Below are positions 15,828 through 21,980 of a DNA stretch of 47,744 nt, in pieces. How positions within the stretch are numbered: the stretch's first letter is position 1; every line of letters starts with the position of its first letter. The translations under genes and the position numbers were made by a program. The notes under the pieces were generated by a model, which was not told where the DNA came from, did no database searches, and saw only the letters and a program-made list of their open reading frames with translations. This stretch comes from an uncultured Methanosarcinales archaeon (GTDB lineage Archaea > Nanobdellota > Nanobdellia > Woesearchaeales > DSVV01): assembly GCA_964593285.1 (NCBI GenBank), contig CAZQHZ010000011.1:1-47744 (forward strand), read 5' to 3'.

Positions 15828-16613
15828 TTAAATTATTTTTTTTAATTCTTCTTTAAATGATTTTAAATTAAAATGTCTTGCAAGTGTTTTTATGACTTCT
15901 TTGTACTCAATTTCATTAGAAAGTAATGGTAGCATATCTTCTTGCCATCTTTTATGAAGTTTTTTAGCTTTATTAAACATTTTTATAATATCAAAATCAT
16001 ATCCTGATAATTTACATTTTTCTTTTGCTAATTTTAAATCTAATTTTTGGTTTGATTTAATTATCATATATATATCAAAATGATCTCTTGGTTTATTTCG
16101 CCCTATTGTTGCAGCAAGTTTTTCTGCAAACATTTCTTTTTTTGAAAGGGTATTTACATAAAAATTGGGAATAAATTCATTATAAAAATGAGAAACATTA
16201 TGAATTTTGGGTTTTTCTAAAAGTTTTGATCTTTTATTAAGGTCTATAAATATTGTATCTTGTTTATCATCAAAATTTGTATAATGAAATATAAGTCTTA
16301 TAAAACCTTCAACATTTTTATCTTCTCTAACATGTTTAAAAAAGTTTGAGTTAAGTAATATTTTTGTAATTTCTTTTTTAAGTTCATCTATGTTTCTTGT
16401 AATAGTATAATCTATATCTTCACTTAATCTTGAATAATTAAGAAACAATTTTTGAAGTGCAGTTCCTCCTTTAAAATAAATTCCTTTAACATCTTTTAGC
16501 AGATAAAGAATTATTGTTATATAATAATCTTTAGCTAACATATTTCTATTAAATGTATATTGTGATGAGATATGAGTAAATTCGTCATTAGTTAATCTTT
16601 TGATTTTATCCAT
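15828..16613 (-). CDS. abiEii: AbiEii/AbiGii nucleotidyltransferase toxin (type IV TA)
   Basis: KDY, FKGGTAL, RLSEDIDY, AEKL and RNKPRDHFD motifs. Confidence 0.9.
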   Translation of the reverse strand: MDKIKRLTNDEFTHISSQYTFNRNMLAKDYYITIILYLLKDVKGIYFKGGTALQKLFLNYSRLSEDIDYTITRNIDELKKEITKILLNSNFFKHVREDKNVEGFIRLIFHYTNFDDKQDTIFIDLNKRSKLLEKPKIHNVSHFYNEFIPNFYVNTLSKKEMFAEKLAATIGRNKPRDHFDIYMIIKSNQKLDLKLAKEKCKLSGYDFDIIKMFNKAKKLHKRWQEDMLPLLSNEIEYKEVIKTLARHFNLKSFKEELKKII

Positions 16614-17092
16614 TTTTTTATATATTCTTTAGGAAATATCTTAAAAGAATGACCTTTTATTTTTTCAGTTATAAAATTGTTTACTTTATTTTTAGTTGAT
16701 CTATGGAATATGAATCTGTTGTTAAGAATTATAAATTTACCTTGTTTTTTTGTTGTCCATATATCTATTTGCATGGGTATTTGATTTGTAAGTTTGTAGT
16801 AATTTGCTGCAGCCCATCCACCAATAACATAGTCTTTGCTATTAAGTATTTCATCTGCAATTATGAATGGGTGTTCAGTCCATTTCCCTGATTTTGCTTT
16901 AATTGGTATTAGGTAATATTTATTTTTATTGAGCTTAATAATACGCTTTTTTTGTATAAGATTTTTTATAATGTTATATCTTTGAGTTTTATTTTCTGTA
17001 AATTTTTCAATATTTTCTGTTTTGAAAAAATAATTTTGATTAAATTCAAGACTAGATATAATTTCAATTTCTTTTTTTGAAAGTCCTTTCAT
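16592..17092 (-). CDS. abiEi: AbiEi-family antitoxin/transcriptional regulator (type IV TA)
   Basis: N-terminal wHTH; YVIGGWAAANYYKLTNQIP motif; overlaps the toxin start. Confidence 0.85.
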   Translation of the reverse strand: MKGLSKKEIEIISSLEFNQNYFFKTENIEKFTENKTQRYNIIKNLIQKKRIIKLNKNKYYLIPIKAKSGKWTEHPFIIADEILNSKDYVIGGWAAANYYKLTNQIPMQIDIWTTKKQGKFIILNNRFIFHRSTKNKVNNFITEKIKGHSFKIFPKEYIKKWIKSKD

Positions 17093-17470: not shown

Positions 17471-17719
17471 TTAATATTTATGTCCAAAAACAATTTTTTC
17501 AAGGTATAATTCTTTTTTATCAGTGTCATAAGAAAAAATGATACGAAGTTTTTTTATACGAATTCTACAACTACCTGTTAAATCGTAATGAAGTTTTTTA
17601 TATCTTTCTGGATTTTTAGATACTTCTTCAATTTTTGTTTTTATACTTTTCTTAAGAGAATCTTCTAGCTTTTTAAAATCTTTAGAAAATTCTTTTGTTG
17701 GAAGAATCTTATAATTCAT
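17471..17719 (-). CDS. relE: RelE/ParE family type II toxin
   Basis: YKI..TKEF.KDFKKL...RIRIKKLRIIF...IVFGHK pattern; start at ATG 17719 overlaps the antitoxin stop. Confidence 0.85.
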   Translation of the reverse strand: MNYKILPTKEFSKDFKKLEDSLKKSIKTKIEEVSKNPERYKKLHYDLTGSCRIRIKKLRIIFSYDTDKKELYLEKIVFGHKY

Positions 17720-17885
17720 TCCAATCATCAAATTCTCGTTTTTTTATATTTTTCTTTGCATTTTTGTATGATTTCATAAATTTAGGGTCGCTCATTAATT
17801 CTAAAGATTCGACAATAGAATCAAATTCTTCTTTTACTTTTAATAAATCTATTATTGCATCCTTTCTTATTTTAATTGCTTCCAT
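17709..17885 (-). CDS. Cognate antitoxin, 58 aa (not in the ORF track)
   Basis: Translates MEAIKIRKDAIIDLLKVKEEFDSIVESLELMSDPKFMKSYKNAKKNIKKREFDDWNEL; ESLELMSDP motif typical of RelB/YefM-type C-termini; lies upstream of and overlaps relE. Confidence 0.8.
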   Translation of the reverse strand: MEAIKIRKDAIIDLLKVKEEFDSIVESLELMSDPKFMKSYKNAKKNIKKREFDDWNEL

Positions 17886-18197: not shown

Positions 18198-18731
18198 TCA
18201 TTTCTCAAGCAATATTTTTTTATTGCCTGAATATAGTCCCATGTGGCTCATTTGTTCATATTGATTTTCTGTTAAAGAAAGTGTAGTTAATGAAAATTTG
18301 TATTTTTCTTTAATATCTGCACATATATGTTTAATAAATCCTGGATCTAAATCTTCGCCAATTAATAAGACATTTGCTTTATCTGGATGTTCTTTTCCAT
18401 GTAGTATTACTGATTTTAAGTTTGGTAGTTCTTTTATCTGTTCAATAAAAATATCAAGGATTCTTTTGTCAACTTTAAATATGTTTGATAAAATTGCTGT
18501 TTTTTTGTTTTCAATTATATAATATAATTTAATTCTGCTTATTTTTTCAACAGTTATTAATTCTAGTTTTTCTAATTTATTTAATATTCTTAAAGTTGTA
18601 GCAATTGGAATTTTAGATAATTCTGACAATTCTTGTAAATAGTATTTTTTTGATTTTTCTCTAAATAGTATTTTTAAGATGGCAATTATTTTTTTGTCAA
18701 ATAAATCTTCAAAAATTTTTATTTCATCCAT
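18198..18731 (-). CDS. Winged-helix protein with a degenerate minimal nucleotidyltransferase-like domain
   Basis: YYLQELSELSKIPIATTLRILNKL HTH; VILHG....DKANVLLIG where MNTs have LFGS...SDID. Confidence 0.65.
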   Translation of the reverse strand: MDEIKIFEDLFDKKIIAILKILFREKSKKYYLQELSELSKIPIATTLRILNKLEKLELITVEKISRIKLYYIIENKKTAILSNIFKVDKRILDIFIEQIKELPNLKSVILHGKEHPDKANVLLIGEDLDPGFIKHICADIKEKYKFSLTTLSLTENQYEQMSHMGLYSGNKKILLEK

Positions 18732-19238: not shown

Positions 19239-19940
19239 ATGGATACTTTAGATTGTATATACAATAGAAGATCAATTAGAAAATTTCTAAATATACCTGT
19301 TGAATGGTTTAAAATAGGTCGTATTTTGGAAGCTGGATTAAATGCACCTTCTGCAGGTAATCTTATAGATTTTCGTTTTATGGTTATTAATGATGATGCA
19401 AAAAAAAAAGAAATTGCAAAGCATTGTATGAATCAAAATTGGATGGCTAATGCACATGTTTATATTGTGGTTACCTCAACTTATGTTAAAACTCAGAGGT
19501 TTTATGGGGTTAGAGGTGAAAAACTTTATTCTATTCAAAGCGCGGCTGCTGCTACTCAAAATATGCTTCTTGCTGCACATTCATTAGATTTAGGTGCTTG
19601 CTGGGTTGGTGCATTTGATGAAGATTTAGTAAAAGAATTATTAAAAATTCCTGATTATGCAAGGGTGCAATCTATTATACCAATAGGTTATACAGATGAA
19701 AAACCACCAAGGCCACCAAAATATTCATTAACTGATATGGTTCATTTTAATTTCTATGGGGATAATGCTGCTAAAATGAGTGATATTAGAACAGAAGTAT
19801 TAAAAGAATGGTCTCCATATACAGAAAGGGCTGTAAATAAAATTAAAGATACTATTGATAATTCTTCAACAATTGGTGAAAAGATAACTAAACATGCAAA
19901 AAACCTGCATGAAAACATTAAGAAAAAATTTAATAAATAA
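19239..19940 (+). CDS. Nitroreductase family protein
   Basis: RRSIRKF, APSAGN and QNMLLAAHSLDLGACWVG motifs. Confidence 0.9.
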   Translation: MDTLDCIYNRRSIRKFLNIPVEWFKIGRILEAGLNAPSAGNLIDFRFMVINDDAKKKEIAKHCMNQNWMANAHVYIVVTSTYVKTQRFYGVRGEKLYSIQSAAAATQNMLLAAHSLDLGACWVGAFDEDLVKELLKIPDYARVQSIIPIGYTDEKPPRPPKYSLTDMVHFNFYGDNAAKMSDIRTEVLKEWSPYTERAVNKIKDTIDNSSTIGEKITKHAKNLHENIKKKFNK

Positions 19941-20029
19941 AATAACTATTGTTTTTAATATATATTTTACAAAATAGTGTTTAAAATATAGAAATATTTA
20001 AATAAGATTATGTTCACAAAAATAGATAT

Positions 20030-20260
20030 AAATAAAGTATTTTTTTGGCGGAAAATACTTACAAGATTTGGCGTTTTAAAGTGTTTTATTGATATAAATT
20101 AGTTTTAATACCTTTTTTGGCGAAAAAGTATTATTGGCGATATATATCAAGTGTTTGTTTCTAAAAGAGAATATAGTGTAACTACTATTTAAAGTTTTCG
20201 ATAGTTTAGACTATATTCTAAAAAATGGGGTTAAAAAACCTTATAATTTAAAAAAGAAGA
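20030..20260 (+). promoter_or_regulatory. Long structured 5' leader of ftsZ with four TTGGCG motifs
   Basis: TTGGCG at 20045, 20068, 20117 and 20134; stems 20035-20043/20052-20060, 20106-20111/20128-20133, 20089-20096/20143-20150 and 20168-20177/20210-20219; TATA-like TTTAAATA near 19997. Confidence 0.55.
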
Positions 20261-20273
20261 TAGAGGGGAAAAA

Positions 20274-21341
20274 ATGGATTTTGTTGTTAAAAAAGCTATG
20301 GAACAAGCTGGGGAAATGGATAATATGGAAATAAAGCCTGCTAATATTAAAGTTATTGGTTGCGGTGGAGCTGGTAATAATATGGTTAACTGGCTATATA
20401 AAAAAGGTGTTGATGGAGCAGAAATTATTGCTACAAATACAGATCAACAGCACCTAAATATTACTGAAGCTGATAAAAAATTTTTAATTGGTAAGGATAT
20501 TACCAAAGGCCTTGGATGTGGTGGTTTTCCACAAAAAGGAGCTGAAGCTGCTCAAGAGTCTCTTACAAATATAAAAGATTCATTAAAAGGCTCTGATATG
20601 GTATTTGTATGTGCGGGAATGGGAGGTGGAACCGGAACTGGTTCAGCACCAATTGTTGCAAGTGTTGCACGTGATTCTGGTGCAATTGTTATTGGAACAG
20701 TTACTATGCCATTTAAAATAGAAAGAGCAAGAGTTGATAAAGCAGAATTTGGATTATCACAGTTAAGACAAGTATCAGATACTGTAATTGTTATTGATAA
20801 TAATAGATTAGTTCAAATTGCAGGAAATTTACCAATTCAGCAAGCTTTTGCTGTTGCTAATGAATTAATTGCAACAATGATTAAAGGAATTGTTGAAACA
20901 ATTGCTGTACCTTCATTGGTAAACTTAGATTATGCTGATGTTAAAACTATTATGACTAATGGTGGTGTTGCTGCTATTGGTGTTGGTAGTTCTGATACTA
21001 ATAATCGAGTTGAAGAAGCTGTGAAAGGAGCACTTAGTAATCCTTTATTAGATATAAATTATGAAGGTGCAACTGGTGCATTAATTCATGTTGAAGGTGG
21101 ACCCGATTTAACACTTGATGAAATAAATCAAATAGGTGAATTGGTAACTGAATCTATGGATCCTGATGCAAATTGTATCTGGGGTGCTAGAGTTAGTGAT
21201 GATATGAAAGGTAAATTAACTGTTATGACTATTATTACTGGTGTTAAATCACCTTGGATTTTAGGAAAAGTTGATTCAAAAGCTAGATCAAGTGAAATGG
21301 CTGCTATGACTGATGAGCTTGGAATAGAGATTATTAGATAA
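20274..21341 (+). CDS. ftsZ: Cell division protein FtsZ (probably archaeal FtsZ2 type)
   Basis: [17 protein letters not shown] tubulin signature and NLDYAD T7 loop. Confidence 0.97.
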
Positions 21342-21343
21342 GC

Positions 21344-21456
21344 AGAGGATTTTTTCCTCTCTTTTTATTTTACTTTATTTCTTGCCTCTTTTTTTTAACC
21401 ACCCCCAAAACGTTAAAGAAGAGGCAGACAAAGGGTGGGGGCAAAATATTTGCCCC
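21344..21456. other. GC-rich structured element downstream of ftsZ (hairpin, putative H-type pseudoknot, hairpin)
   Basis: AGAGGA/TCCTCT hairpin followed by a T-run; stem 21383-21399/21412-21426 whose loop CACCC is complementary to GGGTG 21433-21437; hairpin 21438-21456. Confidence 0.6.
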
Positions 21457-21743
21457 TATTTTTATTTATATTTTAATTATTTGTTAAGAATAATTATTAG
21501 ATTAAATTATAAAATTACTTTTTGTTTTTGTAAAATATATTATTGTTAATTAAAAAAATTTATGTTTTTTTCTTTTTTTAAAATGGTTAATTTAATTTTT
21601 GAAGTTTTAGAAGATTTTTTATTAAATTTTAGAATATTTAAAATATTAAAATCAAAATTTAAAATATTAAAACCAAAATTAATTTAAAAGAGTTAATTAT
21701 ACTTTATTTATATATAATATATATAGGGGGTTTTTTAAAAAAA

Positions 21744-21980
21744 ATGGCATTTGATAAAAGTTTAGATAAAGAATTATTTGGTGAATATGCAAATTTTGAA
21801 ACAACAAGGCTTAGAGTGAGCGTTTTTTCATATAATGATGGTGAACCAAAATTACAAATTTCAAGAGAAAATTTACGAGTTAGTGATGGTGGATATACTT
21901 TTACTAAACTTGGTAGAATGACTAAAGAAGAAGTTGTTGCAATTAAACCATTACTTGAAAAAGCAATTGAAAAGATGTAA
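21744..21980 (+). CDS. Small PC4/YdbC-like putative ssDNA/RNA-binding protein
   Basis: VSVFSYNDGEPKLQISR...KLGRMTKEE resembles PC4-fold proteins; RBS GGGGG. Confidence 0.55.
   Translation: MAFDKSLDKELFGEYANFETTRLRVSVFSYNDGEPKLQISRENLRVSDGGYTFTKLGRMTKEEVVAIKPLLEKAIEKM

Follow-up and report, generated by a model that had tools for sequence, protein, structure and literature searches.

What controls the division gene ftsZ in those archaea from which the regulator otherwise encoded beside it is reported missing? The question is raised by the DNA analysed here, namely a window of 47,744 nucleotides, i.e., contig C11 of a genome of 1.18 Mb with a G+C content of 22.8%. The FtsZ encoded in this window (Pfam Tubulin and FtsZ_C, TIGR00065) shares 76-87% identity with its relatives, which are mostly ascribed to Ca. 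Woesearchaeota, Nanoarchaeota or Nanoarchaeia, some being labelled otherwise. A second FtsZ of the genome is 51% identical to it and adjoins an Spt5/NusG gene, a neighbourhood which we take to be the context of ftsZ1; on this ground, we infer that the gene of the window is ftsZ2. CdrS, an RHH protein encoded directly upstream of ftsZ2, has been reported from every archaeal clade but DPANN (PMC7439475; for the cdrS-ftsZ2 locus, see also PMC8406309). At the locus considered here, no ORF of at least 40 aa is found within 19940-20274, in agreement with the initial annotation of this DNA, which saw no cdrS-like ORF, and a search of the genome for the RHH family PF01402 returned as sole match a NikR-like protein on another contig and none at ftsZ. 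At L216 (G000:C7:22476-25583), a NikR-like RHH regulator stands among putative hydrogenase maturation genes, all these names being presumptive and given by ourselves.

A hexaloop array in the ftsZ leader

The sequence TTGGCG occurs on the plus strand at 20045, 20068, 20117 and 20134, just where it had initially been noticed. With 6 such sites in the window against 2.4 expected, and 89 in the whole genome, the clustering of four of them in 95 nt is far above chance (P ~7e-12, or ~7e-7 genome-wide). The gene and the elements of the array are as follows:

20035-20060, both strands: hairpin 1, with loop 20045-20050 reading UUGGCG on the plus and CGCCAA on the minus strand
20068-20073: second TTGGCG copy, without stable stem in this genome
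20089-20150: long hairpin, the outer stem of which (20089-20096/20143-20150) encloses hairpin 3 and the fourth motif (20134-20139)
20106-20133: hairpin 3, with loop 20117-20122, inside the long hairpin
20263-20268, plus strand: Shine-Dalgarno-like sequence, beyond the predicted antisense RNA described below
20274-21341, plus strand: ftsZ, 355 aa

The outer stem is present as initially described and so are the two loop-capped hairpins, with the reservation that hairpin 3 has a stem of only 4 bp on the plus strand, where it is interrupted by C20112·A20127, against 11 bp on the minus strand, where a U·G pair stands at that place. On folding, the minus strand gives this 11-bp stem with its CGCCAA hexaloop at a z-score of -3.68, equalled by 0 of 200 shuffles, versus -0.38 for the plus strand. 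Hairpins 1 and 3 are the only stems of at least 10 bp capped by TTGGCG among the 89 sites of the genome, and the array is therefore not a mobile repeat; the many dispersed copies and variable position of REP- or MITE-like elements were not found, both long stems lying here and their position being fixed in orthologues. Rfam gave no match at E up to 10 over 19930-20290, and none reaching the gathering score at five orthologous loci.

For the comparison with other genomes, 96 orthologous upstream regions were read and 91 used, four being too short and one coming from an unpublished genome; in all the conservation counts given here the loci include close kin and are not independent. The initial annotation had set in advance, as a test, whether the motifs occur in orthologous leaders: at least one TTGGCG copy is present upstream of 72 of the 91 ftsZ orthologues, and 2-4 copies at 68 of them. 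Summed over the 91 regions, 197 TTGGCG stand against 1 CGCCAA (shuffles: mean 5.3, maximum 10). Stems of at least 4 bp carry 133 of the 197 loops, for 20.7 with permuted flanks, and the stem positions exhibit all four types of Watson-Crick pair, i.e., the sequence of the stem varies and its complementarity is kept. From 1 to 5 copies of the loop motif are found per locus, on stems unrelated in sequence.

It is on these counts that a purely DNA-based explanation has to be judged, in which the motifs would be bound as duplex DNA by a transcription factor, whether E2F-like or not. As many as 64 of the 197 copies sit on stems under 4 bp, as such sites well might, but flanks that vary and nonetheless remain complementary, together with an orientation as strict as 197 to 1, make the explanation very improbable, the more so as the wobble-type strand asymmetry reported below is meaningless in duplex DNA. 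The transcription factor site array considered in the initial annotation is accordingly disfavoured, and the likeness to E2F sites is, as was already thought, coincidental.

The array is tied to one kind of ftsZ gene. Among 20 upstream regions of ftsZ1 type taken as controls, the 19 that were long enough hold a single TTGGCG and no hairpin, and in the genomes with two ftsZ2-like paralogues that were read, the motif is always (10 of 10) present at one paralogue and absent from the other. The array is single-copy in this genome, and across loci it stays within the ftsZ leader while the upstream neighbour genes vary. In other orders of the class (54 loci), 9 loci have at least two TTGGCG and 12 have at least two variant loops such as TTGGGC. 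A search of metagenomes with the pattern of the last hairpin gave more than 120 matches, 80 of which were examined; 17 of these are immediately 5' of ftsZ, most of the others having the look of chance matches, while on viral contigs 3 matches to the pattern were found, none next to ftsZ. A two-loop pattern run over 251 genomes was too unspecific for mapping further copies. A literature search, with subscription journals largely outside its coverage, found no description of an ftsZ hairpin element. A deeply conserved and undescribed RNA element is present at the division gene ftsZ.

Some observations made alongside may be recorded here. The second ftsZ2-like paralogues (L198-L201, L204, L206-L208, L210) have short leaders without hairpins, several of which share a promoter-proximal AGTATAC resembling the upstream element of the promoters described below. 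About 4 kb ahead of the other ftsZ, at G000:C4:35285-35320 (L445), a 12-bp hairpin with TTGGCG within a 10-nt loop precedes a 75-aa ORF; at the same locus, G000:C4:36518-37024 encodes a 168-aa HTH-like protein, which one query matched in all of 24 genomes from the family and in 3 of 16 other families. In the window, G+C-rich hairpins stand just 3' of ftsZ amid A+T-rich DNA (21334-21471), possibly a small repeat or a terminator, with a weak Rfam L20_leader score of 28.9 bits for a cut-off of 58.7. On the other side of ftsZ, a nitroreductase-family gene (19239-19940, plus strand) has counterparts within 1.5 kb of ftsZ, up- or downstream, in 37 of 84 loci, and two toxin-antitoxin-like pairs are found on the minus strand at 15828-17092 and 17471-17885, the one made up of an AbiEii-family nucleotidyltransferase and the gene that overlaps it on its upstream side, the other of a ParE-like gene and its partner of 58 aa.

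Two facing promoter-like sites

Promoters were searched for with a BRE model built from 26 tRNA upstream regions of this genome together with the TATA consensus. Among the tRNA genes, one at G000:C5:58687 (minus strand) is a tRNA-Ile with anticodon UAU according to ARAGORN, a kind rare in archaea. Around the array, the search gave the following predicted features:

19960-19984, plus strand: upstream element of P1, common to P2, candidate transcription factor site
19990-19996 (BRE) and 19997-20004 (TATA), plus strand: P1, predicted ftsZ2 promoter, with predicted start at ~20028
20028-20273, plus strand: predicted ftsZ2 mRNA 5' leader, 246 nt, from the position of P1 plus 31 nt
20200-20194 (BRE) and 20193-20186 (TATA), minus strand: P2, predicted antisense promoter, with AGAA at 20162
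20206-20230, minus strand: upstream element of P2, including the 3' arm of a 10-bp inverted repeat
20020-20162, minus strand: predicted small antisense RNA, ~130-140 nt, starting with AGAA at ~20162, its 3' end nominal

The sense start, on the place of which the initial annotation had made its RNA model depend, is predicted upstream of all four motifs, and over 60 loci the median length of the predicted leader is 238 nt. The best promoter site upstream of the array is on the plus strand in 66 of 71 loci, and the best one downstream of it is on the minus strand in 57 of 71, AGAA being found 30-32 nt past the minus-strand TATA in 52 of 71 (31 nt here). The P2 (AGAA) rule holds at 62 of the 72 loci with the motif and at 5 of the 19 without, among which L016, L025 and L046 carry variant loops; this rule was devised on the same loci, and it also fires on the opposite strand at 20 of 91 and on shuffles at 3.75 of 91. 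It holds at none of 19 ftsZ1-type controls. Of the 17 independent metagenome loci, 13 have their better site on the minus strand, and in 11 the minus-strand site is 48-54 nt away from the loop. Taken together with the structural evidence of the next section, antisense transcription from P2 appears likely.

P1 and P2 are 70% inverted copies of each other over 54 nt, and the likeness extends to their upstream elements. With a model of this element trained on P1 alone, 51 of 60 P2 sites exceed the 95th percentile set by 303 other promoter-like sites; with a model trained on P2 alone, 46 of 60 P1 sites do so, the P1 of this genome ranking first, whereas ~9% of shuffles do so in this cross-test. 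Ranked among the 305 promoter-like sites of this genome, P2 is 1 and P1 is 3; outside these two promoters, the element is rare in the genome. Since the upstream element is common to P1 and P2, one factor might serve for both RNAs. A wider regulon was looked for, and no division gene appears in the top 30 sites, the ftsZ1-type promoter being 177 of 305. The further 10-bp stem of the initial annotation is present as sequence, i.e., as an inverted repeat at 20168-20177/20210-20219, but is neither conserved nor covarying as an RNA stem, at least 7 bp being kept in 8 of 60 orthologues for 3.3 with permuted partners; as a conserved stem it was rejected, and the repeat mostly corresponds to the shared upstream DNA elements of the two promoters.

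The two promoters face each other ~120-230 nt apart and commonly share the upstream element, an arrangement from which it could be argued that convergent transcription is itself the regulator, P2 interfering with P1, and that the role of the hairpins is confined to stabilising or terminating the antisense RNA. The other orders lend this some colour, as the P2 rule holds there at 24 of the 54 loci for only the 9 with at least two TTGGCG already mentioned. Interference of this kind would leave unexplained why an invariant hexaloop, in up to five copies, recurs across many families, and as a full account it seems quite unlikely.

The probable structured strand and possible readers of the loops

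Where the plus strand shows an A·C mismatch, the minus strand has a G·U pair, and the mismatches inside the stems can thereby tell which strand is kept folded. In 187 distinct hairpins, 59 internal mismatches were counted on the sense strand, A·C amounting to 29 and G·U to 8; in a held-out set of 146 unseen loops, 108 of them with stems, the figures were 22 and 5, respectively (pair counts were taken from scripts, the alignment having served for viewing only). Because sense A·C mismatches are antisense G·U pairs, the structured molecule is probably an antisense RNA of ~130 nt with CGCCAA loops. Selection on the minus-strand fold would explain this asymmetry, as would a mutation bias resulting from heavy minus-strand transcription. 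Loop centres are predicted unpaired at 0.92 on the minus versus 0.72 on the plus strand; by folding z-score the minus strand comes out ahead at 55 of 60 loci, a comparison biased by base composition and given little weight. U-tract terminators were looked for, and none that is strong or conserved was found on either strand. U·G closing pairs on the sense strand, considered as a sign of selection on both strands, numbered 13 in the first set and 1 in the held-out set, and they were dropped as such; the case for selection of the sense hairpins in their own right is weak.

Across loci, the predicted antisense RNA has a median length of 117 nt (range 49-188), and its start precedes the ATG by 79-215 nt; therefore it would not cover the ribosome site, the Shine-Dalgarno-like motif being present at 60 of 60 loci.

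These results bear directly on the model of the initial annotation, i.e., a sense leader with UUGGCG loops bound by protein and with no antisense RNA at all. The loops do lie within the predicted leader, in 42 of 60 loci the first of them follows the predicted sense start by 10-21 nt, and the P2 rule does not hold at 10 of the 72 array loci. Against this, the BRE and the AGAA start that go with the TATA downstream of the array are those of the minus strand, A·C is in both sets more frequent than G·U, and hairpin 3 is here unbroken only on the minus strand, which makes a sense-only element decidedly unlikely. What stands of that proposal is a cis-regulatory RNA with repeated loops that is undescribed, conserved and linked to ftsZ; what it missed is the antisense promoter-like site and the signs that the stems are maintained on the minus strand.

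Who or what reads the loops is best approached through their variants. In several lineages all loops have changed together: they read GCCCAA in L113, L118, L122, L124, L166, L174 and L176, AGCCAA four times in L046, TTCCAA three times in L025 and TACCAA three times in L213. Most variants retain, on the sense strand, the pattern pyrimidine-U-N-purine, which is the U-turn pattern of antisense loops; two types (L159, L164) are devoid of it. Among the variants, TTGAGC and TTGACG lose the GG. This last point weighs on a T-box-like explanation. In the T-box riboswitch, the leader of an amino-acid gene, with its specifier stem and UGGN antiterminator bulge, binds uncharged tRNA by the free 3' end; the UGGC of the sense loop is, by sequence logic, complementary to a G-CCA end and might in this way couple division to amino-acid supply. 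With loops that can do without GG, selection acting on the other strand and no T-box match in Rfam, this is the least probable of the explanations considered, and hardly a credible one.

The concerted switches are of more consequence for the choice between two readings that both start from the antisense RNA. On the one hand, the CGCCAA loops may be binding sites for a protein, the RNA titrating or recruiting a division regulator in the manner of CsrB, possibly the very factor acting upstream of both promoters. One loop on unrelated stems in 1-5 copies, stems selected on the minus strand only and loop centres open on that strand all fit such a role, and all loops switching together within genomes points to a common reader in trans, which is the strongest objection to loop-loop kissing, as pairing in cis and in register does not require it. 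On the other hand, a purely trans-acting sponge need not stay in the ftsZ leader across a class, and no candidate protein tracks the array. Binding of protein is, on balance, somewhat unlikely but a serious contender; the CsrA-like logic suggested initially thus survives as the main rival, with the antisense CGCCAA loops as the likelier ligand in place of the sense loops.

Two candidate readers encoded nearby were considered and set aside. The PC4-like protein (78 aa, 21744-21980, plus strand), which has PC4-like Atlas features, close structural neighbours in Woesearchaeota and no Pfam match, had been proposed as a partner, an idea contradicted by synteny, since of 84 loci the present one alone has the gene at a distance of at most 1.5 kb from ftsZ. 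The winged-helix (wHTH) protein (177 aa, 18198-18731, minus strand), the C-terminal part of which resembles a nucleotidyltransferase fold according to Atlas, was matched over its full length in 19 genomes, and in 15 of these an ftsZ2-like gene is no more than ~4 kb away. As loop reader it was rejected, since a full-length match was found in 6 of the 23 genomes with the array and in all 8 of those free of TTGGCG (a hand tally from one query, where a non-match does not mean absence); it may instead be a candidate for an alternative, protein-based control of ftsZ2 in DPANN.

Known systems and a proposed countertranscript

In countertranscript control, such as that of plasmid R1 by CopA/CopT, an antisense RNA acts against a leader. 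The plasmids of the I-complex come closest to the present case: the target loop of ColIb-P9 is named as 5'-rUUGGCG-3' in the title of Asano et al. (1998), kissing of RNAI with SLI is described for IncB/O and IncK, and the IncK RNAI primers show CGCCAA (PMC10724649). As far as these sources describe them, the systems (ColIb-P9 Inc RNA/repZ; IncB/O and IncK RNAI/SLI) share with the ftsZ locus the UUGGCG/CGCCAA hexaloop pair and, as far as it is predicted there, a small RNA antisense to a leader. Countertranscripts are made from an opposite-strand promoter and are complementary to the leader over their full length; promoter-like anatomy of this kind is seen in the sequence here. The differences are as plain, namely (i) a chromosomal ftsZ target and not a plasmid replication initiator, (ii) archaeal promoters, (iii) 1-5 loops versus one, and (iv) no leader peptide and no partner for an activator pseudoknot, neither having been found at the loci compared (upstream ORFs are not conserved, and CGCC is absent from all 60 leaders). 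As such, the ftsZ element resembles plasmid countertranscript control in its working but is not a member of it, and because target, promoters and multi-loop build differ and Rfam gives no match, the likeness of the loops is probably convergent.

Other systems are more distant. In Escherichia coli, StfZ is a cis-antisense RNA to the ftsZ mRNA, 366-552 nt long, which tunes the FtsZ level (PMC9628754); it sets an example of ftsZ being under antisense control, but is bacterial, with no repeated loops described in the abstract, whereas the RNA predicted here is of ~120 nt, built of hairpins, and would not reach the ribosome site. The cdrS-ftsZ2 locus, as reported, also places a dedicated element directly before ftsZ2, which is here non-coding and without RHH ORF. 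The sponges CsrB and RsmZ repeat a short GGA motif in hairpin loops in variable copy number. Several copies of one loop motif are also seen here (2-4 at the 68 loci noted above), but the motif is CGCCAA/UUGGCG and not GGA, and the predicted RNA is antisense to an mRNA leader.

Considering that the array never leaves the ftsZ leader, that the plasmid loop pair is identical and that most variants keep the U-turn pattern, the reading preferred is that of a cis-acting countertranscript pairing with the ftsZ2 leader by loop-loop kissing through an I-complex-like hexaloop, to which we give about an even chance. Under the preferred reading, P1 would give an ftsZ2 mRNA bearing 1-5 UUGGCG loops at its 5' end and P2 an RNA of ~50-190 nt with CGCCAA loops. 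Pairing would start by kissing of the loops, as in I-complex plasmid control, the duplex then extending. Attenuation, decay and polymerase collision are listed among the modes of cis-antisense RNAs in a review (PMC4374534), and these are the likely ones here because leader peptide, pseudoknot partner and overlap with the ribosome site are all lacking. The leader would thus be terminated early or degraded, aided by collision of polymerases, and the output of FtsZ lowered; translation would not be blocked directly, since the antisense RNA ends ~80-200 nt short of the ribosome site. One factor bound upstream of both promoters would have mRNA and inhibitor made together, their ratio setting a threshold for the division protein.

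As regards the organisms, the element occupies the genomic slot of CdrS, the regulator reported missing from DPANN (PMC7439475). The whole may be put together, tentatively and with rather less confidence than its central part, as follows: DPANN of Nanoarchaeia type, being without CdrS, might time division by a kissing-loop countertranscript encoded in the ftsZ2 leader, where a single factor would act on two promoters that mirror each other and an antisense RNA with several loops would set the FtsZ2 threshold; the loop would have been reached independently of the enterobacterial plasmids. Two promoters, two RNAs and one loop make a fully specified system, which can be tested in vitro without culture. 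If the countertranscript reading is true, a chromosomal and class-wide archaeal antisense switch would be at hand; if, more precisely, kissing is true, archaea would have an essential chromosomal gene under structured cis-antisense control, and the plasmid hexaloop would have been arrived at by convergence. Should the loops be read by a protein, the RNA would serve as bait for a new archaeal RNA-binding regulator of division.
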